The notes: generated by a model not told the origin, from the letters alone. Positions 5,251 to 46,262 are shown, numbered from the stretch's first letter. The stretch: DNA of 64,000 nucleotides from Candidatus Cloacimonadota bacterium (GCA_021108395.1 JAIOQZ010000038.1:3415-67414), one strand, 5' to 3'. Made by a program: numbers and translations.

Positions 5251-6735
5251 ATGAAACGCATAGCATTTTTTCTCATCCTGACGGGGCTTCTCGTTAGCTT
5301 GATGGCGCAGAGCCAACTCGAAGAACTCTACTACCGTGATTACGGCGAAATCGTGCGTCTGGTGCTTGTGTTCCAAAGCGAGCCAGACTGCCAGATTGAG
5401 CAGAACGGCGAGACCAGCCGGCTCGTGATTCGTTTGCGCAACACGACACGTTCGCGGGAAGTGCGCAACACCTATTCCCTCACATCGAGCCGCGTACTCG
5501 AATCGATCGATGTGACGGAAGACGGTGGCGCCCTTGTGCTCACTATTCACACCGACAAGCCATACACGCTCAAGCGCCCGACCCAGGGAATCGACCCAAA
5601 GAGAATCGTGCTCGATATATTTGGCGTGGCCCAGCCAACTACTCTCGCCGAGCACACCAGCTTTGCCCACTATTACAGCACGGTTGGTTACAGGAACAGC
5701 GCCCTGAAGGAATTCGAGTGGCTCGAAGCCAATGGCGACGGCGACACCGACTACCATTTCGACTGGGGCATGATGCTGTTGCGCCAGGGCAAAAAGCAGC
5801 AGGCGGCAACTCACTTTCGTGCAGTGCAGCCGAGCGCGAACCACTATCGCAAAGCGCAGGAAGAGATGGCCAAGCTGGGTGGTGTTCCCAGACCTGCCCC
5901 CGTTGCGCAACCAGAGCCGCAAGCGACGACGCAACCCGTAGCGAGTGAAACGCCAGAGCAGCCCGACGAAGCTCGAGGCGATGACGCGCAGAAATTCCTG
6001 CAAGCACAGGCTGCCGCCGCCAAAGCCATGGTCAGCGGTGAGCAAGCCGACTTTGAACAGGCTGCGACAATGCTACTGGAAGCTGGCGAAGACTCTGTGT
6101 TCAAACGTGAGGCGTATGTGACGCTGTACAGTCTCTATACATCGTGGGGGAAGCCAGAAAAAGCCAAACTTTACGCTGACGAGGCCGAGCTTCCCAAGAC
6201 TTCTGCAATGACCTGGACTCCGGGTGAGAACGGTGGAATCATGCGTCTTTGCATCCAGTTCTGGTTGGCCATATTGCTGGCGGCTCTCGTTGGGCTGATA
6301 GTGTTCTTTCTCATGCTCATTTACTATGGGTACAAGAAAGATAAAGATGAACCCGAATTCACGATGGCGGACATCAGGGAGCACAGCGATAATCTTGTCG
6401 AAACATACAACGAGTCGGTCGAAGAAGAAGATGAACTGGAAAAAGAAGAACCAGAGCCAGAGTCTGCCCCTGAAGCGGAAGAACCTGAGATTGAAGAGCC
6501 AGAAATAGAAGAACCTGAAATCGAATTGCCGGTAGAGGCGCCGGAACCGGAACGGGAAGAACTGCAAGAGCCGGAAGAACTTCCTGTCGATGATACTCCT
6601 GGTATCGGTGATCCGGAATACCAGAAGAAGATGATACTCAAGCTGAGCGCTGACGGCTGGGACACCGAGGCCATTGCCAAGGAGATGCAGATTTCCCAGC
6701 GCGAGGTTGAGTTCATCCTCAAGACTCAGTCGTAG
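5251..6735 (+). CDS. Hypothetical multi-domain protein: signal peptide, AMIN-like domain, TPR-like region, one TM helix, acidic EEPEI repeat, C-terminal HTH-like segment
   Basis: N-terminus MKRIAFFLILTGLLVSLMAQS; the RLVIRL...RIVLDIFG pattern; TM helix FWLAILLAALVGLIVFFLMLIYY; EEPEIEEPEIEEPEIE; tail LSADGWDTEAIAKEMQISQREVEFIL. Confidence 0.7.
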   Translation: MKRIAFFLILTGLLVSLMAQSQLEELYYRDYGEIVRLVLVFQSEPDCQIEQNGETSRLVIRLRNTTRSREVRNTYSLTSSRVLESIDVTEDGGALVLTIHTDKPYTLKRPTQGIDPKRIVLDIFGVAQPTTLAEHTSFAHYYSTVGYRNSALKEFEWLEANGDGDTDYHFDWGMMLLRQGKKQQAATHFRAVQPSANHYRKAQEEMAKLGGVPRPAPVAQPEPQATTQPVASETPEQPDEARGDDAQKFLQAQAAAAKAMVSGEQADFEQAATMLLEAGEDSVFKREAYVTLYSLYTSWGKPEKAKLYADEAELPKTSAMTWTPGENGGIMRLCIQFWLAILLAALVGLIVFFLMLIYYGYKKDKDEPEFTMADIREHSDNLVETYNESVEEEDELEKEEPEPESAPEAEEPEIEEPEIEEPEIELPVEAPEPEREELQEPEELPVDDTPGIGDPEYQKKMILKLSADGWDTEAIAKEMQISQREVEFILKTQS

Positions 6736-6740
6736 GGAAG

Positions 6741-7751
6741 ATGCCGTCCCTGGCTTCGCAATTGCAACAGGTCGTCGAGAGCGATGTGGCGGAGTTGCGT
6801 CGGCGATTGAAGTTGGGCGAAATCGTACCGGCGAAGGTGAGCCGCGTATTGAGTGAAGGGCACTATGCCATCACTGTTCGCGGCGAGACCGTACATGCGC
6901 AGTCGCACCTTGCGCTTAACGAAGGTGAGCTTTTCGTCGTTGTCGAGAGCTTGCGCCCCAAGATTCGGCTGCGGCTCGTGCCGGTACAATCCAGCCGCTC
7001 TGCCGAGGCGATGATTCGCCTGGCGCTCGAACACGGCCTTCCCCTCGACCCTCAAACGCAGCAGGTGCTGCTGGCGCTTATCGAGCACGGCTCGATGCCC
7101 CCCGATATAGAGGCCTTTGTTGGCGGCTGCCATGAGCTGTCGGGGCTGCTGCCGCATGGCTCGCAGGTGAGTTGGGAGCTGCTGCTGGCACTAGCCACTT
7201 TGCCCGGTGGGGAAGGGCCACCTGCCCTGGATGTGCTGCTCGAACTGTTCTCGATGCGTGACACGCTGCTGCCGGAGCCATTCACTCTCCCCGTACCAGA
7301 TGAGGACGCCATGCGCTATGCCTGGCTGCTGCTGCGTCTCGACGGGGTGGATGACGCCTTTCGTCTCGCTGTCGCCCCCTCACCCCTACGCGGGCGACTC
7401 GAACGCTGGCGCTCGCTGCTGGGCGCTCTCAACGCCGTCATGGAAGGTGTGCAGCTTCAGGCCTGGCTGCTGCCGGAAAACGGCCGCCTGCGACTGGCGC
7501 TCGCCGAACTTCACAGCAGCGGCGGGGTTGACTACTGCCGCCTGTGGGTGCGCACCGACGTTTTCAACGACATCCGCGTGCAGCTTCAGTGGACCACCGA
7601 CACCTCGCGGGCAACACTTGGCTTTGACAACTCGGTGGCCGCCCGCGACTTCGGCCAACTGCGCGACAGCCTGAGACAGGAAGTCGCCGCCACCCTGCCG
7701 GGCTGCGGACTGCACATCGAGGTGGACCACCCCTTGGGAGGGCGACCGTGA
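6741..7751 (+). CDS. Hypothetical protein of the flagellar cluster
   Basis: A long ORF with GC-rich codon usage matching its neighbours, starting 5 nt after the upstream stop. I recognise no family. Confidence 0.6.
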   Translation: MPSLASQLQQVVESDVAELRRRLKLGEIVPAKVSRVLSEGHYAITVRGETVHAQSHLALNEGELFVVVESLRPKIRLRLVPVQSSRSAEAMIRLALEHGLPLDPQTQQVLLALIEHGSMPPDIEAFVGGCHELSGLLPHGSQVSWELLLALATLPGGEGPPALDVLLELFSMRDTLLPEPFTLPVPDEDAMRYAWLLLRLDGVDDAFRLAVAPSPLRGRLERWRSLLGALNAVMEGVQLQAWLLPENGRLRLALAELHSSGGVDYCRLWVRTDVFNDIRVQLQWTTDTSRATLGFDNSVAARDFGQLRDSLRQEVAATLPGCGLHIEVDHPLGGRP

Positions 7752-8750: not shown

Positions 8751-10769
8751 TTAACTTTTCTTTTTCCTTAGAAGTTTATTTAGGTCAGTAAATATCCTTT
8801 CAAAATTGTCTAGAGTATTATCAGATATGGTTTTTTCTAAGTCTTCTATATTTTCTTGAAAATAACGTGCAGGCCTATAATGATTAAATGTGATGCCTTT
8901 TGGGGGGGTCTGCTTTAAGTAATCCTCGATGCGTTTCAACACACGAGGATGTTTGCTTTTCAAATCTATTTGCTTGATAGTCGTGCCGAATTCACCATTT
9001 ACTAAGGAAAGATAGAAATCGATATCGAACATGTCTTCAATATCTGCTGAAGGTCGATTCAGATAGTCACCAAACGTAAGCACGCGACTTTTTGTTAGAA
9101 GTTTTTTCTTATACAGATTCTCGATTGACTGCCTATCTTCAGGTTTGACATCAACAAGTACTGCGATTTTTAAGTCTTTCTGTGAGCCCAAAAGAGAGAC
9201 AAAAGTCTGCACTTTGTCCGCACCACCAACAGGAGTAATTGTCCATTTGGCACTTAATCCAGTTCGATTCGATCTCTCAAGACTACTTGTGATGCATCGA
9301 AGATAGATCAAATCAGATGGACCTTCAACGATTAGACAATTAGGTCCTATGAACAAAGATTGCGTTATACTGTATCCCATTGCAGCCTGCAAAGGGAAAA
9401 TGGTGTCATCATCTGTTTCGAGTACATCTTTAGTAACTTTTGTTGTTCCATCCTTATCCTCATACACAGCTCGTACATTCTCGAAGTTGTTAACATCAAC
9501 AAGAAATGGGGAGTGTGTAGAATACATGGTTTGATTAGATGCGGATAGTTTTTTGAAAAATTCAATAAGTTTAGCTTGTGCAGTACCATGTAAATGTAAT
9601 CCTGGCTCATCAAGCAATAAGATACTGTCTTTGTGTGCTCCTTCTGCTTCAACTAAGAAGACAAGATAAAAGGAAAAGAAATACTGCATACCATAACTTC
9701 TTTGGTCCAGTTCGATCTCACTAGGATCTAAATCATCTGATACCCAAATTCTTAAATAATCACCATCAGCTTGATAGCGAAACTTATGTTTCCTTTGATC
9801 CCACCAATCAGAAAACTTACGAGTCATTGAATTTGATGCTGAGGAGAAATGAATAGCTCGTTCATCAATATATCTTCTGGTTTTTTCTTCATCAATCCTT
9901 TGACCGTGATTATGAATTCCAAGATTCGCAAGAGTTTTAATATCTAAGCCTACATGTTGAAACATGCACATGGTAATTCTTTTATTCGGTGATGGTTGAT
10001 TCAAAAAGGATGGCAGGTGAATGGCACTATCTAAGACGTTATACTTATCGAAATATATGAATTGAGGAAGCATTTCTTCAATATGACTTAACGCTATTTT
10101 GTAGTCTTCAATTTCCTTTTTTCTCTCAGTGTATGGTGTAAGAATCTCCATTATTGATTGTAACACATCCTTCTGCCATTCTTCATTAGCCCTTTGAAGA
10201 AGCTTTTGTTGTATTTGGTCTACTATTTCTAAAATGTTGTCATTGTTGACTGTTTGCTTTATACTGTTTAGGCTATCAGACAAATTCTGTTTTATATCTC
10301 CGAGTTCTTCACCTTTTCCATCAGGTGCTGTTAGATTGTTAACACTATCAACTATTTCATCGATAAATTCTAAAATTTCTTTCTTCTTAATATATCTAAC
10401 ATCTGGTTGAGGATAAAAAGCAGTGCTATATTTTGTAGAATAATAACGTGTGATTTCAACGTGATCAACTTTTGACAAGAGAGATGAGAGTGCTGTGAGT
10501 TTATCAACCTCAGACTCATTTAGGCTAAAACGACAACTCGATACTGGCCAAGCCCATTTCTCATATTCATCTGTATATCTTTTTCTTGGAAACTCCTTAA
10601 GGCCATCGTATTTCTCTTTGTCTGATGGATTGAACTTTGATAAACCTCTGAACACAGCCGATTTTCCTGCCTCATTTTTGCCCACAAAAGCAGTTAAATC
10701 TCCAACATCAATCCAGCCTGTATCATGTACTTTTTTGTAATTTTGCACTCGGAAAGCAGTCAGTCTCAT
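8751..10769 (-). CDS. Fused ABC-type (AAA_15/21-like) ATPase and C-terminal Toprim-like nuclease; OLD-family / single-chain PARIS-like candidate defence protein
   Basis: Walker A GKNEAGKS, signature-like QRSYGMQYF, Walker B ILLLDEPGLHLH, H-loop STHSPF. The Toprim-like part has LIVEGPSDLIYL, PVGGADK and VLVDVKPED. Start chosen at ATG 10769, which follows GGAGGAA. Codon usage is AT-rich. Confidence 0.8.
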   Translation of the reverse strand: MRLTAFRVQNYKKVHDTGWIDVGDLTAFVGKNEAGKSAVFRGLSKFNPSDKEKYDGLKEFPRKRYTDEYEKWAWPVSSCRFSLNESEVDKLTALSSLLSKVDHVEITRYYSTKYSTAFYPQPDVRYIKKKEILEFIDEIVDSVNNLTAPDGKGEELGDIKQNLSDSLNSIKQTVNNDNILEIVDQIQQKLLQRANEEWQKDVLQSIMEILTPYTERKKEIEDYKIALSHIEEMLPQFIYFDKYNVLDSAIHLPSFLNQPSPNKRITMCMFQHVGLDIKTLANLGIHNHGQRIDEEKTRRYIDERAIHFSSASNSMTRKFSDWWDQRKHKFRYQADGDYLRIWVSDDLDPSEIELDQRSYGMQYFFSFYLVFLVEAEGAHKDSILLLDEPGLHLHGTAQAKLIEFFKKLSASNQTMYSTHSPFLVDVNNFENVRAVYEDKDGTTKVTKDVLETDDDTIFPLQAAMGYSITQSLFIGPNCLIVEGPSDLIYLRCITSSLERSNRTGLSAKWTITPVGGADKVQTFVSLLGSQKDLKIAVLVDVKPEDRQSIENLYKKKLLTKSRVLTFGDYLNRPSADIEDMFDIDFYLSLVNGEFGTTIKQIDLKSKHPRVLKRIEDYLKQTPPKGITFNHYRPARYFQENIEDLEKTISDNTLDNFERIFTDLNKLLRKKKS

Positions 10770-10837
10770 TTGTTCCTCCATAACTATCAATTAAAGGCTT
10801 TTCAATATTTGTATTCAGAACAGTTATTATGTCAATC

Positions 10838-10864: not shown

Positions 10865-10875
10865 AGAAAAGCTCC

Positions 10876-11562
10876 TCACCTCACCCCAACACTCACCCCT
10901 TCTTTCTTCATCATCTCCACCGCTTCCTCCACCCCCGTGCGCGGGTGCAGGCGGAGCTGTTCGAGGTCTTCGAGCGTGTTGTCGGGGCGGCAGCGCTGGA
11001 GCGTAAAGCGGCGGCAACCGGCAATCTCCTCCTGTATGGCCAGCACGTCGGCGGGCTCGAGCAGCAGGTCGAACCACGTCGTGCGCAGCTCGTGGTCAAT
11101 GCCGGTGTCGCGCAGCAGCTTCACGCTGCGGCGGATGGCTTCGGTGTCCACGCGCATTCGCACCATTGCCCGGTACTTCGCCAGCGGCGCCTTGTAGTCC
11201 ATGGCTATGTAGTCCACCAGTCGCTCGTGGATGAGCAGCGCCAGCATGTCGGGATTGGTGCCGTTGGTGTCCAGCTTCACGCGGTAGCCCATCGCCTTGA
11301 GCCGGCGGCAGAAGCTGGGGAGGTCGTCGTGCAGGGTGGGCTCACCCCCGCTGATGCAGACGCCTTCGAGCAGTCCCCGCCGCGAAGCGAGGAAGTCGAG
11401 CACCTCGTCCTCCGGTATGGGCGGCTCGAAGCGGTGGGCATCGACGAGTTCGGGGTTGTGGCAGTATGGACAGCGGAAGTTGCAGCCCTGGGTGAAGACC
11501 GTCGCCGCCAGGTGGTTGTCGTAGTCGGCCATGGAGAAGCGTTCGAGTCCTCCGATGCGCAT
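10876..11562 (-). CDS. nrdG: Anaerobic ribonucleotide reductase activating protein (radical SAM)
   Basis: CNFRCPYCHNPELV cluster motif and GGEPTL. Start set at MRIGGLERFS (ATG 11562), preceded by GAGGGGGGAG. The longer track ORF would overlap nrdD. Confidence 0.9.
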   Translation of the reverse strand: MRIGGLERFSMADYDNHLAATVFTQGCNFRCPYCHNPELVDAHRFEPPIPEDEVLDFLASRRGLLEGVCISGGEPTLHDDLPSFCRRLKAMGYRVKLDTNGTNPDMLALLIHERLVDYIAMDYKAPLAKYRAMVRMRVDTEAIRRSVKLLRDTGIDHELRTTWFDLLLEPADVLAIQEEIAGCRRFTLQRCRPDNTLEDLEQLRLHPRTGVEEAVEMMKKEGVSVGVR

Positions 11563-36801: not shown

Positions 36802-38421
36802 CTACTGCTGTTTGGTGCTGTCGATCATCGAGCGCATGGTGGCGCTATGCTGATTGATTTCGCTTTGCACACCCGGCTTGTCGGTGCGGGATTTGGCGTT
36901 GTTGAGCGCATCGAGAGCCTGGCGGAACTGCTGGTTGGCCTGCTCGCGCAAACCCTCCTTGCGGCGAATCATATCATCGCGGGCGCTACCGATGAGATCA
37001 CCCGAGCGCACACCTTCTTCGTAGGCTGTTTCCACTTCGATAAGTTCGTTGTAGGTGTCGTAGCCGCGCTTCTGGTAGATTTGGAAAAGCAGCATATGCG
37101 GCTCGAACTTGTCGGGGTGAAGCTCGGTGGCCTGAATCGCAGTGCGCTGGGCGGCGTTGTAATCGCCCAGCGAGATGTGTATATCGGCCTTCAGTAGTGG
37201 CACGATGGCGTTGTCCGGCTCGATCTCGAGTAGCTTGTCGAGCGTTTGCACGGCCTGCTGATTGAGCCGCTGCTTCTCGGCGCCGTCTGTGTTTTGGGCG
37301 GCTGTGCGATATGCCTGGGCAAGGTTGAGATATGCCTTGGTGTTGCCGGGCTCGCTGGCGATAACGCTCTCATATTGCTCAATAGCCTCGAGGATGCGCC
37401 CGGTTTTCTGATAGGCGATGGCCAGCTTGCGATAGATTTCCTCGTCATCGGGATAGATGTCGTTGACGAAACGCAGGTGCGGCAAGGCGGCGTCATAGTC
37501 TTCTTCCTCGAACAGAATGAGCGCCAGGCGATAGTGCGGCTTGTCATAATCTTCGTCCAGTTCGAGCGCCAGTTCGAGCGCCGTCACTGCCTCATCGGTG
37601 TATCCGATGTCGGCGTAAAGATTGCCCACGCGCAACCACATGCAGGGGTCGGCAGTCCGCTCGGCAAGGTCTTCGAGCAGAGCGATGGCCTCGTCAAACT
37701 TGTCCTGCTCCTTATACACCACGCCCAGCAGGTTGATGACGCCATCATGTTCGGGGTCCAGTTCGAGCGCCTGCTTCAAGTAATCCTCAGACTGCCCGAA
37801 TTCCTGCTCTTCGTAGTGAATTTTTCCTATGTTGAGCACTGCGTCGAAATGATTGGGATCCAGCTCGAGTACCCGCAGGAAGCCTTTGATCGCCTCAGAC
37901 GCATTGCCCGAGCTGTATTGCTGCATAGCGATATGATAGAACTTGTCAACCTCGCCACCGGTGAACTCCTCGATCTTGGCGAACAGCTCATTTGCGAGCG
38001 CTTCGCGGCGAGCATCGGTGCGGGTCGTGACCTTGAAGCATAGCAACTTGATATCGTTCGAGCGCATAATGAAAACGCGCATCTGAACGCTGAACTCTGT
38101 GTTGGTATTCGAGGTGATTTCACCCCAGAGGACGATGTCGGCGCCCAGGCCCTGGCCGATTGCCTTCACCTGATCGGTTCCCAGTGCCATCAGGTTGTCG
38201 AAGCCGTTCTGTTTCAGGTATTTTTCAGTGTCCTTGATGCTGATGAGTTCGAATGTCGCGCTCTCATCGAGCACAGCGTCGAAGTCGCGCTTCATCATCG
38301 ACTTGGACACATTGGCGCTGGGCCGGTCACAGGTGAAGCCAAGAATGGCCACCTTCATGGGCGCGGCGAGCAGCGCCAGGCTGAAGCTCAATAATAAGCT
38401 TATGACGAGTAATTTTTTCAT
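36802..38421 (-). CDS. Secreted TPR-repeat protein
   Basis: Start at MKKLLVISLLLSFSLALLAAP (ATG 38421 after GGAGG). Multiple TPR-like units follow (ALELDPNHFDAVLNIGKIHY, ALELDPEHDGVINLLGVVY and others). Confidence 0.8.
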   Translation of the reverse strand: MKKLLVISLLLSFSLALLAAPMKVAILGFTCDRPSANVSKSMMKRDFDAVLDESATFELISIKDTEKYLKQNGFDNLMALGTDQVKAIGQGLGADIVLWGEITSNTNTEFSVQMRVFIMRSNDIKLLCFKVTTRTDARREALANELFAKIEEFTGGEVDKFYHIAMQQYSSGNASEAIKGFLRVLELDPNHFDAVLNIGKIHYEEQEFGQSEDYLKQALELDPEHDGVINLLGVVYKEQDKFDEAIALLEDLAERTADPCMWLRVGNLYADIGYTDEAVTALELALELDEDYDKPHYRLALILFEEEDYDAALPHLRFVNDIYPDDEEIYRKLAIAYQKTGRILEAIEQYESVIASEPGNTKAYLNLAQAYRTAAQNTDGAEKQRLNQQAVQTLDKLLEIEPDNAIVPLLKADIHISLGDYNAAQRTAIQATELHPDKFEPHMLLFQIYQKRGYDTYNELIEVETAYEEGVRSGDLIGSARDDMIRRKEGLREQANQQFRQALDALNNAKSRTDKPGVQSEINQHSATMRSMIDSTKQQ

Positions 38422-38802
38422 AATTGCCTCCGTTCCTTGCTGGCCGGTCGCGGGGCGCCGACCGCACAATCACATTTGTAATCATCTTCTGGCAAACTAA
38501 GATAATTCGGCAAGGTTTTTCCTGTCCAGGGCCGCAAAATCACTTCTGTGCGGTACGCCATGTCTTGTAGTCACAACGTGCGCGGCTCGCATTTATTACT
38601 TGCCAGATGTAAAATCTCACCCCCCCTGGCAAGAGTTACTATCGCTCCCTATTCTGGGACAAGGGTTGAACACACTAAGAGTTAAGTCGATAGTAACGAT
38701 AGTAGCTTTTTGGCAAGGACGGTTACTATCGGTTCTTTTGGTGTCCCGTCCTGAAATAGTTGACCAGTTTTTTCTTTGTTCGTTTCCATTTTGATGTGAT
38801 CC

Positions 38803-39645
38803 CTATGCAGCTTTCAGGATTTCATCTGGTGTGTGATAGTTTTGAGTGATGATGATACGATCCTCATTGTATATCCTGATCGCGTCTTTCACATAACGCG
38901 ATGCATCATCAAAGTCTCTGAAATTCCTCTTCAGCCCCAACTCGTGCTTCAGTATGCCGTTAATCCTCTCTGCTTTTGCGTTGTCGTAGCATTTACCAGC
39001 ACCTGTCATGCTGGTTAGATAGCTATACTTACGCAGAGCTCTCTGGAACCGGTTACTGGTATATTGGCAGCCATGATCAGAATGATGAATGCCAGATGGA
39101 ACATGTTTGCTTGTACGCACTTGACGAAGTTTCTTCATCGCTTGCTTCAATGCAAGTGCGGGACCTTGGGCTCCCAAGTCCTTTTGCAGTGAGTACCCCA
39201 GGATTGAATCTGAATAATGATCCGAGGTGAGAGACAAAAACACAAACCCCTTTTGCGTACGAAGATAAGTAATATCACTCGCGATTATTTCACCTACACG
39301 CTGGGCAGTGCCCATCAGCTTCACCAAATTTGGGTATTTACTGCGTCGTCCTATGCTTGTGTAGCATCGGCGACGATATACCTGAGAGAGCATGTTATGA
39401 GCTCGTAAAGTACTGAAGAGTTTATCCCTGCCTACGTTAATACCGCTCTCGACCAACATGTATTGCAGTTTGCGGACGCCGATGAAAGGCTGGGCTGCCC
39501 GTATCCGCTTTACTGCGAGGATAATATCATCAACCAACACCTGCTGTTTCTTGATGATACTCCTATGCTGATAATACCCTTGTTTAGAACGGCCAAACAA
39601 TCCGCAAACAGTATTCATGTTAGCGGTTACTTCTTTCTCTTGCAT
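38803..39645 (-). CDS. IS3-family transposase OrfB-type (HTH_21 plus rve DDE core); no orfA present
   Basis: VCGLFGRSKQGYYQH; DDE residues in IIASDITYL, IHHSDHGCQYTS and YDNAKAERINGILKHE. An A10G run lies upstream at 39682-39691. The in-frame extension to 39957 looks non-coding. Confidence 0.8.
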   Translation of the reverse strand: MQEKEVTANMNTVCGLFGRSKQGYYQHRSIIKKQQVLVDDIILAVKRIRAAQPFIGVRKLQYMLVESGINVGRDKLFSTLRAHNMLSQVYRRRCYTSIGRRSKYPNLVKLMGTAQRVGEIIASDITYLRTQKGFVFLSLTSDHYSDSILGYSLQKDLGAQGPALALKQAMKKLRQVRTSKHVPSGIHHSDHGCQYTSNRFQRALRKYSYLTSMTGAGKCYDNAKAERINGILKHELGLKRNFRDFDDASRYVKDAIRIYNEDRIIITQNYHTPDEILKAA

Positions 39646-39780
39646 AACGGCCCGACACTCGGTGATGATTGTGAACCAGTCTTTTTTTTTTACTCCAAGA
39701 CCATACCTCCGCTCTATTTTGCTTGACACCTCCCAGCGCTCATGCACATGCTTGTATAATAAAACTATGGAAGTGGAATT

Positions 39781-42489
39781 ATGAAAAGCTGTCTGCTCGC
39801 CGTCCTTTTCCTGTTGCTGGTGAACTCGCTCATGGGGCAAACCAGAATCGATTACATAGTTGACCCAACTGATGATGATGCATATCACTCGTTGGCTGAG
39901 GTAATGATAGTCATTCGGGAGACACTTGGTGCATATATACACCAAGTATGGATTCATCCGAACATCGATCCGGGCACAGGCACAGTTATCCCATATTATG
40001 AGCCTTGTTTATATGCCGAGTCGAGGAACATAGAATTCCGTGCAGCTGACGGGCACTCAGCTCAAGATGTCATAATAGAACTGGAGAACACCGCGGCTGT
40101 ATATCTGATTCATATGGAGCACGGTAGCTTCGAGGCACTTGATGTCACCTTCCAAATTGCAGCAGTCTCCATTGCGTGCACACGGATTATCAGTGTCCAT
40201 GCATTTCAAACTTTATGTCTATCTGATTGTATCCTGACATCATACAGCCCAAACGTAAAGTATGGCGTGTACTATGGGGGGGGAGGGTTCGAATATCGAG
40301 TAATGCAGATTATAGACTGCCACTTCAACCATGCCGCTATGGATACAGGAAGTGGTTCTGCGATTTTTGCGGATAGTGCCACTGAGGCTTATGTTGGTGG
40401 AAGTGTCATTGAAAACAACAACAAAGGTATATGCTTCTGTAAATGTGGAGATCAGAAAGTTGTTTGGTCTGAAATCCTGAACAACAACCTTGCGGTTGAT
40501 TCATACGGGGTGTCTTTTGTGTCTAATATTGGAGATGAAGTATCCTCTGAGGTTAGTAATTGCGTGATCATCAACAATAAAACTGGTGTCTGGACGGAGC
40601 TGATTGGGACATTGATTAGACATAATATCATGTCACAAATCCCCTACAATATTCGGATTAGTGACATGATGCCAAGCTGGGATTTTGATGCTTCCGCGTT
40701 TTGCAGATATAATCTGCTTATCACAGATGCTACAGGCGACCCAACAACTGCCGCTTGCGTTGAGAATAACGGTTTACTAACATTGACCAGTAACACAATT
40801 ATATGTGAACCGGGCAATTCCACTGACCTGGATGTCATTGCTGTTGACCAAAATAACGTAGGTGGGTGGCTCTTCAATTTAATTGACAACATTGTACTCG
40901 GCTTCCCCCCAGGTTGTTGGGATACCCTCCAGGACTTCAGTTGGGTTCAAGTGGAGTATTGCTGTTGTGATGTAGGGGTTCCATATCCTCACCAGGCATA
41001 TTATTTGAACATCTACACAGACCCCTTGTTCACTGACCCGGGCAATACGGAGCTCCCCCAATGGGGCTACGACCTTACCTGGGATTTTGATGCATACAGC
41101 TCGTGCATCGATAGGGGCGATCCTGAACTTGAAGACCCCGATGAAACCCGATCCGACATCGGCGCTTTCTACTACCCGCAGGAAACCGTAACATACCCCT
41201 TTGACGAACTGGTAAATGCCAGCAATATAGTATGGCTCAGCTTCCCTGTCATGGATACCCGCTACGATGAAGAGGAAGATGCATTTCTCAACGAGGTTGT
41301 TCCCATGCTGCACCCATACACTCTTTTTGATCCGCCTGCAACAGAACCCGAGCTTATCAACATCGACTGGATGATTGGCGGACATGACGGTACTGCAGTA
41401 TGGAATGACCAGCAAAACGTTTGGACGAATGGCGAGCACCGGCTGACGTCGCCATATGGCTACAAACTCAGGTTCAGGGATAATGAGGTGACTGACCTCG
41501 AAATCACAGGTCGCCCGGGGCTGCCGGACAAGGACGTCGTCCCGCTCTATAGTGAAGAAGACGAAGAAAGAACCTATCTGAACTGGATAGGCTACTTCGT
41601 TCCCAAAGGCCTGTATGTTCTGGACGCGTTCTCCACCAATATCGAATATATGTACTCAATTAAAACTCAGCGCTGGAGTATCGTGAGGAGGACTCAGGAC
41701 CCGGAAAGCGAGTGGATAATACCTCCCTCGTCTGACCCATACACAATACACTACATGGATTGCATTGAAGTGAAGGTGTTCGCTGATTCACCCAGTGGAA
41801 TGCTCTGGAACGTGCCCGAAGGAGCTGCACCTGAATACTATCCGCCGGAAACCGAGTATTTCAGCTATGTAGAGGAAATGGACTACACCCCTGTGTACAT
41901 CGTCACGGAGCCGGGAAGCCCACCCAGCGAAATAGCCACATTCGTCGATAGCGTCTGCATCGGCGCCGCCGTAGTGGAAGACACCCTCACGCTTGTTCGC
42001 GCCTACCTGCCCGATCTGAACAGGGACAACAACTGGGAACTCGCCATTGCCGTTCACTATGGCGACAGAGGGGCCGGCGCTGAACCTGTGAGCGATTATC
42101 ACGTCTTCGATCCAGCGACCGGTTCATACATAAAACGCACCATTGACTTGCGCGAAGGCGCCGACTACTACATGATCTCGCTGAAGGGCCCTGACCCGGA
42201 CGCGCCGGCCCGGCCCACCGGCATCGAAGGAGTATGGCCCAATCCTTTCAATCCCACCACCACCGTTCGCTTCAATCTCGCCGGCGAGTGCGATGCGCAA
42301 CTGAAGGTGTATAACGTGCGCGGGCAACTTGTGAAGACGTTGCTTGCAGAGCAATTGCCTGCGGGCCTACATGAAATCATGTGGCACGGCGTTGACGAGA
42401 ACGAGCGTCCCGTGGCCAGCGGCGTGTATTTCGTGCGGTTGGCAGCCGGCGGCAGGGAAGAAACGCGCAAAATGCTGCTGCTGAAGTAG
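39781..42489 (+). CDS. Secreted right-handed beta-helix-like protein with FlgD-Ig/T9SS-type CTD (passenger gene 1)
   Basis: Signal peptide MKSCLLAVLFLLLVNSLMGQ; C-terminus VWPNPFNPTTTVRFNL...VYNVRGQLV...GVYFVRL...MLLLK. Confidence 0.85.
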   Translation: MKSCLLAVLFLLLVNSLMGQTRIDYIVDPTDDDAYHSLAEVMIVIRETLGAYIHQVWIHPNIDPGTGTVIPYYEPCLYAESRNIEFRAADGHSAQDVIIELENTAAVYLIHMEHGSFEALDVTFQIAAVSIACTRIISVHAFQTLCLSDCILTSYSPNVKYGVYYGGGGFEYRVMQIIDCHFNHAAMDTGSGSAIFADSATEAYVGGSVIENNNKGICFCKCGDQKVVWSEILNNNLAVDSYGVSFVSNIGDEVSSEVSNCVIINNKTGVWTELIGTLIRHNIMSQIPYNIRISDMMPSWDFDASAFCRYNLLITDATGDPTTAACVENNGLLTLTSNTIICEPGNSTDLDVIAVDQNNVGGWLFNLIDNIVLGFPPGCWDTLQDFSWVQVEYCCCDVGVPYPHQAYYLNIYTDPLFTDPGNTELPQWGYDLTWDFDAYSSCIDRGDPELEDPDETRSDIGAFYYPQETVTYPFDELVNASNIVWLSFPVMDTRYDEEEDAFLNEVVPMLHPYTLFDPPATEPELINIDWMIGGHDGTAVWNDQQNVWTNGEHRLTSPYGYKLRFRDNEVTDLEITGRPGLPDKDVVPLYSEEDEERTYLNWIGYFVPKGLYVLDAFSTNIEYMYSIKTQRWSIVRRTQDPESEWIIPPSSDPYTIHYMDCIEVKVFADSPSGMLWNVPEGAAPEYYPPETEYFSYVEEMDYTPVYIVTEPGSPPSEIATFVDSVCIGAAVVEDTLTLVRAYLPDLNRDNNWELAIAVHYGDRGAGAEPVSDYHVFDPATGSYIKRTIDLREGADYYMISLKGPDPDAPARPTGIEGVWPNPFNPTTTVRFNLAGECDAQLKVYNVRGQLVKTLLAEQLPAGLHEIMWHGVDENERPVASGVYFVRLAAGGREETRKMLLLK

Positions 42490-42723
42490 TTTCGTTTTTT
42501 CGCGTAGCGAAAAAACGAAACCATCGAACGAAAGGGTATGTAGCGTAGCGAATACCCGAAAGAGGAATAGAGAATTTCGCGCAGCGAAAAAACGAAACCA
42601 TCGAACGAAAGGGTATGTAGCGGAGCGAATACCCGAAAGTGGAATAGAGAATTTCGCGCAGCGAAAAAACGAAACCATCGAACGAAAGGGTATGTAGCGG
42701 AGCGAATACCCGAAAGTGGAATA
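42490..42723 (+). repeat. 77-bp tandem repeat, about 3 copies, each unit predicted to fold as a long imperfect hairpin
   Basis: Unit starts at 42507, 42584 and 42661 (period exactly 77). The unit is GCGAAAAAACGAAACCATCGAACGAAAGGGTATGTAGCGGAGCGAATACCCGAAAGTGGAATAGAGAATTTCGCGCA, with internal GGGTAT/ATACCC and GCGAAA/TTTCGC pairings. Confidence 0.85.
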
Positions 42724-42752
42724 CTGGTATTTCTTGACTTGAGTGTATAGCG

Positions 42753-42949
42753 GGGGTGGAATGAAACACCCCATCCCCGAAGAGGTAGAACCGCGCTTTG
42801 CGAACGGTTCACCTGAGGCCCTTCCCCTGCATAGGGGAAGGGAGTATCTGAAAGCGACGCAGTCGCTTAACCCTCCCCTATGCAGGGGAGGGAGGGAGGT
42901 CCCGCACCATGATAGATGGTGCGGGGCTGGGTGGGGTGTTCTTACACCC
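42753..42949 (+). promoter_or_regulatory. Hairpin-dense leader upstream of passenger gene 2 (six consecutive stem-loops)
   Basis: Stem-loops at 42753-42772, 42819-42842 (10-bp stem), 42852-42868, 42871-42892 (9-bp stem, a paralog of the second), 42901-42925 (10-bp stem) and 42934-42949. GGAGGA then precedes ATG 42969. Confidence 0.4.
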
Positions 42950-42968
42950 GCTGAATTTTGGAGGAACA

Positions 42969-45827
42969 ATGCGTGGACTCATGCTCTTTACGTTGCTATG
43001 CTTGGCGACCGTACTAAGCGGCGCCACGCTCACCGTGCGCCAGGACGGTCTCGGGGACTTCACGGCCATCCAGGAAGCCTTCGACGCCGCCTCCGACGGC
43101 GACACCGTGCTGGTGTGGCCCGGGCGCTACTACGAAAACCTGAACCCGGATGCAACCAACCACCTCACTCTCGCCAGTCTCGAAATGACGACAGGCAACA
43201 GCGCCTACATCGATTCCACTGTCATTGACGGAAACCGGACAAGCTCCTGTATCTGGGTACAGGAAGCAGATCTGACGTTCACTCTGCGAGGTTTCACACT
43301 TACGAACGGTACCGGCGTTATCTGTGGCGGAAACAGGCATCACACCGTTGGCGGTGCGATGTGTGTCAATCCGTACATCGACATACAGGTCATCAACTGT
43401 AGAATCTTTGAAAACAGGGCGTATGTCGGTGGTGGGTTTTGGTTAGGTAGTTGTTGCAATCTCTATCTCGAGGGAACAACAATCAGAGATAATATATCGC
43501 GGGTAAAGGGGGGAGGTCTAAGTGTAGAAAATTCTTCAACCGTCACCTTTTCGGACACGAACCGCTGCAGCATATACAACAATATCGGTGCCTCGGGAAT
43601 GGATATCTGTTCCAAGCCTGCACCGCCCATGCATGTAATCGTGGATACCTTCACCGTGGTCAATCCGTCTCCGTTTTTCGCCAACAGTTCCAGGAATACA
43701 TATGCGATCACGTTCGACATTCTGAACGGATGGATGGAGGAGATCGATCACGACCTGTATGTATCGCCCTGGGGCGACGACGACAACAGCGGCCTGAGCG
43801 AGGCCGACCCGCTGCGCACCATCGCCGTCGCCGTGCAGCGTATCGCCTCGGACAGTCTCAATCCCAAAACTGTGCATATCGCCCCGGGAACCTACTCCCC
43901 CCCCAACGGTCAGATACTCGCTGTCCCGGGAAAAGCGTGGGTTACGCTACAGGGCGCTGGCGAGGACGAAACAATTCTTGATATTGGCGGGTATGGGCTT
44001 GGCGTTATCGTCGGCCCGTACATGAATCACGCGGCCGTGCGGGACCTGACTATCAGGAATGGAGGATCAGGTTTGTCAGCCCGTAGGCTTACGGATTTTC
44101 TGCTTGAGAATGTCACAATCAGTGACTGCGAAGCCAAGACCAGCGCATCAATGACATATGAGAAATGCCAGAACAACATTATCCGAAACCTCACAATCTC
44201 AAATAACTGCGCAGTCAATTCACATGCCGGACCGTATCTGATCTGCCAGGAGAATCTGGTGATGAGCAATGTCCTCATCAAGTCAATATCCAGCGGCGAG
44301 GATGCCTGGTGGACAACAGTCCTCGACCTTGACCTAATCGGTGACTGTCTGCTCGAAAATGTGCGGATAATCAACAATGACGGCCACTCGGATCATTCGT
44401 ATGATATCTTCACGATTGGTCCGGATGAGGACGGGACAATGCAGCTGCGGATGAACAACTGCCTTTTCGCCGGCAACACGCGGGATACAGGCCCGGCGCA
44501 AGGGCAAATCCACGCGGGCTCAGACGGTTCGGCGGTGATAACGAACTGCACTTTCGCCAATAACTACGGCGGCGGGGCCTTCGTCAAGTTCGTCGGCGAT
44601 ATAGTCCTCAGTAACAACACCTTTTGGAATCCGAATATCGCTTACGAAATCGTAATCATGAATGTGCCAACTATACCATCTGAAGTAACCTTTCAGTATA
44701 ACAACATACGTGGCGGACAGAGCGGCGTTCTGAACGAATCAGCGGCAAATACCGTGCACTGGCTCGATGGTAACGTGAATATCGATCCCGGCTTCTGTAT
44801 GGCACCCGGCATGGAATACGTTCTCTTCCCTGGTTCCCCGTTAATCGACATTGGCACGCCAGACACGACAGGGCTTTGTCTGCCCCCATTCGATCTCGGC
44901 GGCAACGAACGCGTGTGGGACGGCGACGATAATGGTGTCGAACGCATCGATATAGGCTGTTACGAGTACCAGACGATGCCACCGCCCAGCCAGCTTGAAG
45001 CTGTGGTTGAAGCCACTGATGTTCACCTCTCCTGGCTGCCTCCGGAAACGAGGGATCGAAGCCACACCGGCTACCGCATATACCGCGACAGCATAGCCGT
45101 CATTGAACTGCCCGACCCATCGGCCACAGGCTGTACAGACGTGAATGTTCCCCCCGGCGAGCGTCGCTTCTTTGTAACGGCAACCTATGGCGTTCTCGAT
45201 TCACCGCCTACAAACGAGGTTGTTGTCACTATAGACCCGGATGTATATGCACCTCCAACAGATCTGGAAGGAGCAGTTGATGGATGTGATGTACTACTCA
45301 ACTGGATGGCGCCAGGCGGGACAGCTCGAGTCCGCGAGGAGCGTGATCTGACAGGATACATGATTTATCGAGACAATATATCGATCAATATGATAAATGA
45401 TCCCGGCATTGTCGAGTTCATCGACGAAGATGCCCCTGCTGATACGCTTGCTTACTGGGTAACGGCTCTTTACGGAGCGGTTGAATCCGTGGCTTCTAAC
45501 ACTGTCACCGTAGTTGTTCCTCCTCAAGGTAATAACGAGAGTATATCTCCCTTGAATCTGGAACTATTCTGTTACCCGAATCCTATGAATCCCAGGGCGA
45601 CAATTCACTTTTCATTACCGCAGCCAAATTATGTGGATATAGACGTTTTCAATATCCGAGGGGAGCTTGTTCGACAACTTATCCACGAGATTCATCCTTC
45701 TGGCTATCACAGTATCATCTGGGATGGTACTAATGACTGTGGTGAGGCAATCAGCACGGGAGTGTACTTGGTTCGGTTACAGGCAGGTGAGCAAAACAAA
45801 ACCTCAAAGCTGTTGATGCTGAAATAA
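42969..45827 (+). CDS. Secreted right-handed beta-helix protein with FN3-like modules and FlgD-Ig/T9SS-type CTD (passenger gene 2)
   Basis: Start at MRGLMLFTLLCLATVLSGA. DGLGDFTAIQEAFDAASDGDTVLVWPGRYYE is typical of pectin-lyase-fold proteins. C-terminus CYPNPMNPRATIHFSL...VFNIRGELV...GVYLVRL...LLMLK. Confidence 0.85.
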   Translation: MRGLMLFTLLCLATVLSGATLTVRQDGLGDFTAIQEAFDAASDGDTVLVWPGRYYENLNPDATNHLTLASLEMTTGNSAYIDSTVIDGNRTSSCIWVQEADLTFTLRGFTLTNGTGVICGGNRHHTVGGAMCVNPYIDIQVINCRIFENRAYVGGGFWLGSCCNLYLEGTTIRDNISRVKGGGLSVENSSTVTFSDTNRCSIYNNIGASGMDICSKPAPPMHVIVDTFTVVNPSPFFANSSRNTYAITFDILNGWMEEIDHDLYVSPWGDDDNSGLSEADPLRTIAVAVQRIASDSLNPKTVHIAPGTYSPPNGQILAVPGKAWVTLQGAGEDETILDIGGYGLGVIVGPYMNHAAVRDLTIRNGGSGLSARRLTDFLLENVTISDCEAKTSASMTYEKCQNNIIRNLTISNNCAVNSHAGPYLICQENLVMSNVLIKSISSGEDAWWTTVLDLDLIGDCLLENVRIINNDGHSDHSYDIFTIGPDEDGTMQLRMNNCLFAGNTRDTGPAQGQIHAGSDGSAVITNCTFANNYGGGAFVKFVGDIVLSNNTFWNPNIAYEIVIMNVPTIPSEVTFQYNNIRGGQSGVLNESAANTVHWLDGNVNIDPGFCMAPGMEYVLFPGSPLIDIGTPDTTGLCLPPFDLGGNERVWDGDDNGVERIDIGCYEYQTMPPPSQLEAVVEATDVHLSWLPPETRDRSHTGYRIYRDSIAVIELPDPSATGCTDVNVPPGERRFFVTATYGVLDSPPTNEVVVTIDPDVYAPPTDLEGAVDGCDVLLNWMAPGGTARVREERDLTGYMIYRDNISINMINDPGIVEFIDEDAPADTLAYWVTALYGAVESVASNTVTVVVPPQGNNESISPLNLELFCYPNPMNPRATIHFSLPQPNYVDIDVFNIRGELVRQLIHEIHPSGYHSIIWDGTNDCGEAISTGVYLVRLQAGEQNKTSKLLMLK

Positions 45828-46185
45828 ATTCTATATCAAATGTCACATTCCGCAATAGAGTTGTATGATTCGTTTCTACAAAGCTCCGGACCACTTCTTG
45901 CTGATACTTCCACAAACTGATTCACTTGAGCGAACGGATAACGCCCCTATAACCTCATCGCCTGATCACGAGATCGCTGAAAATAGATAGCCGCTCAGCC
46001 ACATTCGCCCCGAATCGGCTTCATTTGCCAACTTAGTGATACTATTTGCCACGAAAAGTGATACTTTTTGCCATTAGGGGTGAGACTTCACACCAGATGA
46101 TTCACAGCGGATAGCTTGTTCTTTATGTGGGGCGGGTAAATTCTGCTTGACACTAACTGGGTGGGAAATTACACCGTTTCAGACT

Positions 46186-46262
46186 GCGCCCGTAGCTCAA
46201 TTGGATAGAGCATCTGACTACGGATCAGAAGGTTTGGGGTTCGAGTCCCTTCGGGCGTGCCA
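46186..46262 (+). tRNA. tRNA-Arg (anticodon ACG), CCA encoded
   Basis: D-arm GCTCAATTGGATAGAGC, anticodon arm TCTGA-CTACGGA-TCAGA and T-loop TTCGAGT. It has a G1-U72 wobble and a weak first T-stem pair, so confidence is slightly reduced. Confidence 0.8.

Follow-up and report, generated by a model that had tools for sequence, protein, structure and literature searches.

Which transposition system do inverted repeats belong to when they enclose both a transposase gene and two large surface-protein genes? This question is raised by a 7.5-kb block in a 64,000-nucleotide stretch of DNA from a Candidatus Cloacimonadota bacterium (GCA_021108395.1, JAIOQZ010000038.1:3415-67414; the whole stretch is subsequently designated the window, and all positions count from its first letter unless another locus is named). 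The block occupies positions 38608-46092. In the initial annotation, which was made from the sequence, it had been regarded as an element derived from an insertion sequence (IS) of the IS3 family that mobilises two surface-protein genes as cargo. Our analysis indicates that the block is probably a real cargo-carrying transposon insertion, that it is not IS3-derived and that the IS3 copy is a broken passenger. We put the probability that 38608-46092 represents one copy of a transposon of the DDE (retroviral-integrase) type, with ends built like those of Mu and Tn7, at roughly 0.72.

Terminal repeats, target duplication and insertion site

Re-reading of the coordinates confirmed the terminal repeats that had been described for this block. 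The left arm (38608-38632) reads TGTAAAATCTCACCCCCCCTGGCAA and the reverse complement of the right arm (46068-46092) reads TGTGAAGTCTCACCCCTAATGGCAA. In the repeat search, this pair of 25-nt arms was complementary at 20 of the 25 positions (80%), with TGT...ACA tips and 7435 nt between the arms, the distance spanned with the tips included being 7,485 bp. CCAGA is present immediately outside both tips. The inverted repeat by itself is unexceptional, because the same search detected further inverted pairs of 24-25 nt at 72-80% within the same 12 kb. In a random sequence of 64 kb, about 0.008 pairs are expected that lie within 10 kb of each other, form an inverted repeat of at least 20/25 and are abutted by a 5-bp direct repeat. 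The outer ends and their flanks comprise the following features:

36802-38421, minus strand: gene for a tetratricopeptide-repeat (TPR) protein, host flank; its orthologues were used to locate the uninterrupted site
38603-38607: CCAGA, left copy of the target-site duplication (5 bp), read directly and identical to 46093-46097
38608-38741, plus strand: left end of the outer transposon, with tip TGTAAAATCTCACCCC and TGGCAA-GA-GTTACTATCG at 38627-38644
38688-38731: left-end palindromic block CGATAGTAAC...TGGCAA...GTTACTATCG, separated from 38644 by a spacer of ~45 bp
46014-46092, minus strand: right end of the outer transposon; the tip, read inward, is TGTGAAGTCTCACCCC and is followed by three packed TGGCAA motifs
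46057-46073, 46035-46051 and 46014-46030: right-end motifs R1, R2 and R3, respectively
46093-46097: CCAGA, right copy of the target-site duplication (5 bp), read directly
46186-46262, plus strand: tRNA-Arg(ACG), a host gene outside the element that lies directly beside the TPR gene in relatives

Both ends share the 16-nt tip TGTRAARTCTCACCCC, and position 20, counted from the tip, is the start of TGGCAA in each of them. Further inward the ends are asymmetric, the motifs being spread out in the left end and packed in the right end. The palindromic block of the left end reads CGATAGTAAC...TTTTTGGCAAGGACG-GTTACTATCG, and all three occurrences of GTTACTATCG in the window fall inside the 134-bp left end. 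On the right, the motifs TGGCAAAAAGTATCACT, TGGCAAATAGTATCACT and TGGCAAATGAAGCCGAT follow each other as a 22-nt direct repeat, i.e. TGGCAA-N3-GTATCACT occurs twice and a third TGGCAA follows at the same 22-nt spacing. The degenerate pattern TGGCAA-N3-GTWWCWMT matches the window three times, as compared to 0.3 matches expected, and two of the three lie in the right end. Repeated motifs are confined to the ends; we read them from the layout of the sequence as putative binding motifs. The block is bounded by genuine transposon ends whose type differs from that of IS3.

The right tip is located 93 bp upstream of tRNA-Arg(ACG), as had been stated, that is on the 5' side of the gene, and the element sits in the promoter-containing spacer between this tRNA gene and the divergently oriented TPR gene. 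The uninterrupted site, a search for which had been proposed in the initial annotation, was located in relatives through orthologues of the TPR protein (P0129, 60% identical; P0128, 72% identical). In one relative (L102, 60%) the TPR gene is directly preceded by tRNA-Arg(ACG), from which a spacer of 273 bp separates it, and in two further relatives (L103 and L104, 72%) the loci begin within the same tRNA-Arg and adjoin the TPR gene. When positions 38608-46097 are omitted, the spacer in the window measures 274 bp vs. 273 bp in L102. The reconstructed site is colinear with L102, L103 and L104 in the alignment, where the conserved block GCAAGTAATA directly adjoins the junction toward the TPR gene, the conserved -35 region of the tRNA gene lying on the other side. 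Since the flanks are contiguous in the relatives and their spacer length is restored, the 7.5-kb block represents an insertion. The uninterrupted target site itself is seen at the level of orthologues only, and an empty-site or excision allele would read ...TTATTACTTGCCAGA joined directly to TGATTCACAGCGG. The gene for the neighbouring DUF294 protein was found at 77 loci in GTDB genomes (best identity 67%), none of which showed synteny with TPR, DUF6901 or purH, these relatives being too distant for it. A tRNA-integrating island was also considered and rejected, as there is no tyrosine or serine integrase domain and no repeat of the tRNA 3' end, and as the insertion is located 5' of the tRNA. 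Thus, with transposon ends, a 5-bp duplication and an uninterrupted spacer in relatives, the earlier view of a discrete mobile insertion carrying two surface-protein genes stands.

The IS3 copy is a nested remnant

The transposase gene inside the left arm belongs to a separate unit with the following features:

38742 to about 39750, minus strand: IS3-family remnant, 5'-truncated, with its own right terminal repeat at 38742-38765
38803-39645, minus strand: orfB of the IS3 remnant (280 aa)
38803-39957, minus strand: rve-type open reading frame (ORF) holding the IS3 orfB part, from ORF scan and profile search

The NCBIfam profile for IS3 scored 188.5 bits (cut-off 160) with this ORF, covering profile positions 91-368 only, i.e. 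the orfB part, whereas the IS21 model reached 17 bits (cut-off 160). The domains rve, rve_3 and HTH_21 were detected in OrfB, and the DDE domain is an intact ORF. The remnant is a true member of the IS3 family, present as an incomplete, non-autonomous copy. Its closest relatives are 57-68% identical. One of them, P0009 (OrfB 63% identical), is present in six identical copies of 1335 bp in a single contig of 3.68 Mb (ctg38545l, ERZ21862645), and comparison of these copies gave TGTCCCGTCCTGAAATAGGTTGAC ... GTCAACTATTTTAGGACGGGACA as the ends of this IS type. The terminal sequence of P0009, TGTCCCGTCCTGAAATAGTTGACC, is found in the window at 38742-38765, the IS3 end TGTCCCGTCCTGAAATAG being located at 38742. 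The more distant relative P0013 has the terminal repeat TGCCCCGTCCTGAAATAAGTTGAC. No second copy of the IS3 terminal repeat was detectable elsewhere in the 64-kb window when up to three mismatches were allowed.

Alignment with full copies showed good homology from the stop codon up to the A10 slippery (frameshift) run, which corresponds to T10 at 39682-39691 on the plus strand, and the homology declines around 39750. The remnant has neither orfA nor a left terminal repeat. About 30 bp beyond 39750 the first passenger gene (902 aa) starts, equipped with its own TATAAT box and ribosome-binding site. At its other side, the right end of the IS3 remnant lies 134 bp inside the outer left arm and 10 bp past the last left-end motif, and the outer arms and the IS3 repeats have only the TGT tip in common. 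The outer ends are not the ends of the IS3, because the cognate IS3 repeat TGTCCCGTCCTGAAATAG sits at 38742 and the IS3 is truncated. For the IS3 family, no transposition activity is expected of OrfB when the DNA-binding OrfA part is missing. With orfA and the left repeat lost, the IS3 is therefore a nested, dead remnant that cannot mobilise the 7.5-kb unit. This overturns the assignment of the outer ends to the IS3 transposase and of the whole unit to an IS, and likewise the reading of the arm at 38608 as the end of the IS3 gene, of which the ORF represents the orfB part only and the real terminal repeat is the one at 38742-38765. A composite IS transposon was rejected, there being a single, truncated IS copy.

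A further, diverged member of this IS3 clade (68% identical) is located on NODE_4 (L002 4001-5038; similar coverage) of the metagenome assembly that also contains the window. This copy is degenerate, with a fused ORF of 345 aa and no recognisable right terminal repeat.

A homologous left end in another genome and scans for further copies

The scans for other copies of the ends, a check that had been suggested for this element, were successful in part: one decayed left end was found and no other copy was detected in the collections scanned. The homologous left end is located at L006 4871-5008 (= L099 10871-11009) in the 3.68-Mb contig, in an unrelated genomic context. Two blocks of the window end, the tip with the first motif (3-40) and the palindromic block (90-124), are 92% and 94% identical to it, respectively, while the spacer between them has diverged, and the homology ends exactly at the tip, with unrelated flanks beyond. 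Conserved motif blocks with a drifting spacer would be the pattern expected of protein-binding sites in a mobile element. A weak tip-like string across the IS3 in L099, TTTGAAGCTCTCCCCTAA, remained below the alignment threshold and was treated as chance. A TetR-OEP-ABC block stands beside the IS3 in this contig.

Scanning of GTDB species representatives with the pattern TGCCANNNGGGGTGAGANTTNACA gave no hit, and the pattern TNTRAARTCTCACCCCNNNTGGCA gave six hits in JGI metagenomes, all of them chance matches with neither a TGT tip nor subterminal motifs. Two end patterns were negative in the viral contigs of IMG/VR, and a blastn search of GenBank phages with the left end returned only a chance hit of 33 nt. 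When IS3 relatives were employed as beacons (P0013, 8 places), none was found to adjoin such a left end.

Both known left ends carry an IS3 of the same clade (OrfB 63% identical) in the same orientation. The insertion points are 6 bp apart (slash before IS marking the junction: ...CTTTTGG/IS at window 38742 vs. ...CTTTTGGTATCAC/IS at L006 4870/4871 = L099 10870/10871), which means that an IS3 stands within 6 bp and in the same orientation in two of two known left ends. This either reflects site-specific targeting of the transposon end or an ancient inherited hitch-hiker. For comparison, IS4321 and IS5075 target the ends of Tn21-family transposons.

Further copies of the IS3 clade adjoin DNA that is rich in short repeats or palindromic (L097 ~9380-9536; L100 ~9440-9536; L101 ~9400-9536 and 10871-10920; L107 ~5450-5569; L108 1-107 and 1531-1730). 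The adjoining repeats include TTTCCNCACTG, present eight times upstream of a MuA-like gene, TGCCAAACCCGTG, GTCAC(A/C), and GTAAAATG or CTGAAGT together with the palindrome ATGTGCCATGCGGCAT. A 156-bp block just outside the left-end tip in L099 (L099 11010-11165) is 88% identical, in inverted orientation, to L100 9356-9511, which follows prophage-like genes and stops 25 bp short of another IS3 copy; this block is repeated and associated with mobile elements, and it appears to draw insertions. The 3.68-Mb genome also contains a Mu-like unit composed of a 605-aa protein with rve and Mu-transpos_C domains (L097 7516-9333) and a 253-aa AAA_22 protein (6758-7519). An HTH_3 and Peptidase_S24 repressor is encoded nearby, and the unit is interrupted by an IS3 copy. 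Mu-type transposases therefore exist in this bacterial group.

Passenger genes and the spacer between them

The interior of the element, beyond the IS3 remnant, contains three features:

39781-42489, plus strand: passenger gene 1 (902 aa, subsequently p902), with a signal peptide and a C-terminal sorting domain of the type IX secretion system (T9SS), from Pfam and NCBIfam
42498-42728, plus strand: tandem array of 3 x 77 bp with two alternating hairpins, from the repeat search; the copies are 97% identical
42909-45827, plus strand: passenger gene 2 (972 aa, subsequently p972), with a right-handed beta-helix and a T9SS C-terminal sorting domain

The two proteins had been annotated as beta-helix proteins with C-terminal domains for secretion. 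The T9SS sorting domains (Por_Secre_tail and FlgD_ig) are present in both large ORFs. The beta-helix was borne out for p972 (PF13229, 4e-17, besides Por_Secre_tail and FlgD_ig) and not for p902, for which the only hint is NosD at E = 0.04. If p972 starts at 42969, it comprises 952 aa, as called on contig NODE_119. Among 5.8 billion protein clusters, p902 finds homologues with its C-terminal domain only; its first ~800 residues (39781-42240) have no homologue there and no Pfam domain. The 5' half of the p902 gene has a G+C content of 0.42-0.46, which is lower than that of the 3' half (0.50-0.57). This locus is the only one for which the exact passenger proteins are recorded. All remaining ORFs of at least 80 aa overlap the IS3 or the passenger genes on the other strand or in another frame.

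Between the passenger genes, the tandem array proved to be as originally described, and the structured spacer that contains it (42490-42910) folds strongly as RNA (z = -8.6); a long hairpin (42810-42900) precedes passenger gene 2 at a short distance. A search of the element against Rfam yielded tRNA only and no family for the 42490-42910 spacer.

Elsewhere in the window, positions 8751-10790 (minus strand) encode a 679-aa ATPase with AAA_15/AAA_21 domains, resembling OLD and AbiEii. It is possibly a defence gene and is unrelated to the element.

Assembly of the element and a second sample

The window joins the SPAdes contigs NODE_169 and NODE_119, which meet inside the 77-bp array with an overlap of 55 bp and have coverages of 16.9x and 17.7x, respectively. 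The join crosses a collapsed repeat. The number of repeat copies is uncertain, and with it the exact length of the element. That the join is right is argued by the flanks, which reconstitute one orthologous spacer with one target duplication, and by the matched coverages.

The exact TPR and DUF294 proteins of the flanks occur in contigs of only two samples, and the same two junctions are present in both, the second sample being SRR15668623. The Logan contigs of SRR15668623 that carry the host flanks stop inside the element ends (L010 position 1 = window 46052; L089 position 1 = window 38708), and none of the interior proteins is recorded in exact form for this sample. Low coverage could account for these contig breaks, as could a population variant with a different interior.

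Comparison with known transposition systems

Besides the IS3 orfB, neither the element nor the 64-kb window contains a gene for an rve, MuA, TnsB, TniA, TniB, TnsC or IstA-type protein or for an AAA+ partner. Since no enzyme for these ends is encoded, the present copy is defective or non-autonomous.

Tn7 has a spread-out array of sites in one end and a packed array in the other. The window element resembles Tn7-like transposons in its asymmetric ends with several subterminal motifs of ~20 bp, spread out in one end and packed in the other, in its TGT...ACA tips together with a 5-bp target duplication, in the transport of cargo genes and in the adjacent tRNA gene. A 5-bp duplication is reported for Tn7-like elements and CRISPR-associated transposons (CAST; PMC9881144). 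The element differs from the Tn7-like group by the lack of tnsA/B/C and tniQ, i.e. of TnsB, the AAA+ protein TnsC and TniQ/TnsD, by one inverted left-end motif and by ends that show no sequence similarity to any collection searched. Moreover, tRNA-targeting Tn7-like elements insert 29 +/- 1 bp downstream of the tRNA (PMC9881144), whereas the present insertion is located 93 bp upstream and not at a fixed distance downstream.

In Mu, attL contains one terminal site, a spacer and two further sites, and attR three contiguous sites. The layout of the window element is the same, with L1, a spacer of ~45 bp and L2/L3 on one side and R1-R2-R3 at 22-nt spacing on the other, and the 5-bp duplication and TG...CA tips are also shared. 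In contrast to Mu, the element carries no MuA, MuB, repressor or phage structural genes, measures 7.5 kb rather than ~37 kb, and has ends without a match in phage or viral collections. Tn5053/Tn402 and IS21 encode rve-type transposases and have TGT tips, terminal repeats of ~25 bp, subterminal motifs and target duplications of 4-8 bp, often 5 bp. The window element shares these end features and the duplication; unlike these elements, it lacks tniA/B/Q/R and istA/istB.

With regard to the IS3 family, the nested remnant (38742 to ~39750) retains the A10 slippery run and a terminal repeat common to its relatives, while the 7.5-kb unit is about 5x too long, has other ends with subterminal repeats, and contains no orfA. 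IS3 members of the IS1397 type target REP (repetitive extragenic palindromic) sequences (PMC1525189), which is similar to the location of the present IS3 clade beside short-repeat-rich or palindromic DNA in several genomes; target specificity may be involved here, ancient co-inheritance with the outer element being equally possible.

Discussion

How did a transposon without its enzyme come to contain a broken IS3? The outer transposon inserted into the spacer between tRNA-Arg and the TPR gene, making the 5-bp duplication, and we propose that an IS3 entered after the outer element had formed. A single deletion would then have removed the 5' third of the IS3 along with neighbouring DNA of the interior, ending just upstream of p902 and fusing the truncated remainder directly to the p902 promoter. 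The same deletion may have taken the element's own transposition genes; it lies by the end with separated sites, beside which Mu-like elements keep these genes. The tips and all presumed motifs are intact, and therefore the 7.5-kb unit, along with both of its genes for T9SS surface proteins, might in principle still be moved by a matching transposase acting in trans.

Several alternatives to this account have to be considered. The first reading of the locus, in which an IS3-derived element uses its own transposase on the outer 25-bp repeats to mobilise 7.5 kb of cargo, is suggested by the position of orfB just inside the left arm, by the intact ORF of its DDE domain and by TGT...ACA tips with a 5-bp duplication, which are compatible with some IS3 subgroups. 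It appears hardly tenable, as the cognate right repeat at 38742-38765 matches the repeats of relatives and not the outer arms, as the DNA-binding OrfA part and the left repeat are missing, and as the outer arms share nothing with the IS3 repeats except TGT and carry subterminal repeats that are foreign to IS3. A similarly slight chance is left to the idea that the repeats and CCAGA coincide by accident, the block being either ancestral and lost by the relatives or acquired through recombination or as a tRNA-associated island. Chance does produce inverted repeats of like length and quality within the same 12 kb, the relatives stand at a distance (60-72%) and no synteny is conserved beyond the tRNA; yet the combined configuration is expected only ~0.008 times per window, removal of exactly 38608-46097 restores the spacer length within 1 bp, another genome contains a homologue of the left end in which the homology terminates at the same tip, and there is neither an integrase nor a tRNA-derived direct repeat.

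An assembly artefact, in which the 77-bp repeat served to connect two different loci or two copies of the element and no single 7.5-kb molecule exists, is very unlikely as well. NODE_169 ends and NODE_119 starts inside this repeat with an overlap of only 55 bp, but the outer flanks of both halves reconstitute one orthologous spacer with the same 5-bp duplication, the coverages are alike, the repeat variants at both contig ends are consistent with one array and the repeat unit was found nowhere else in the region examined. Appreciably more plausible than any of these, although still improbable, is that the unit arrived already without a transposase, as a mini-element moved in trans by an autonomous relative located elsewhere in the genome or in the community, and that the damage to the IS3 is unrelated. 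The intact tips, duplication and presumed binding motifs and the location of the IS3 10 bp past the last motif agree with such an origin, and the contigs of the second sample, which break inside both ends, could reflect other copies of the ends in the community. Against it speak the lack of an autonomous relative or a second copy in any searchable collection, the record of the exact passenger proteins at a single locus, and the fusion of the truncated IS3 directly to the p902 promoter, which indicates that an internal deletion did occur.

The interpretation as a DDE transposon with Mu/Tn7-built ends also has to accommodate observations that weigh against it. The relatives with an empty site are distant (60-72% protein identity), and the pre-insertion sequence was not seen in nucleotide-exact form. 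The length of the interior, and formally also the join, depend on the correct resolution of the tandem repeat. One left-end motif is inverted with respect to the others, which is atypical for Tn7 or Mu. The left end in L099 has a TAT rather than a TGT tip, and no partner end was detectable within ~9.5 kb of it, gapped local alignment included; the L099 copy is therefore a relic and provides no proof of recent mobility. The collections scanned contained no second complete copy and none beside a cognate transposase, and consequently only the architecture of the ends gives a clue to the family of the cognate enzyme. This architecture would likewise be the sole basis for calling the ends Mu/Tn7-style.

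The lineage of this DDE transposon is undescribed, while its kind, with Mu/Tn7-style ends, and its mechanism class are well known. A broader picture can be drawn in which the ends define an undescribed Mu/Tn7-style cargo-transposon lineage in Cloacimonadota-like bacteria that shuttles T9SS surface proteins between genomes and is moved in trans by an unseen transposase, with the IS3 clade either targeting the left end or travelling as a permanent hitch-hiker. We consider this picture doubtful, more so than the origin as a mini-element. That a dedicated IS3 accompanies an undescribed lineage of cargo transposons is possible, and is unsupported beyond two loci.

In practical terms the finding has modest value, since the copy at hand is defective, the searches gave no active relative and mechanisms of this class are well known. 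For annotation, the locus cautions that a transposase gene within a pair of inverted repeats need not encode the enzyme that uses them. If the proposed interpretation is true, surface substrates of the T9SS in uncultured bacteria of the Cloacimonadota type can travel on transposons, and this transport would be one route to cell-surface variation in anaerobic-digester communities.

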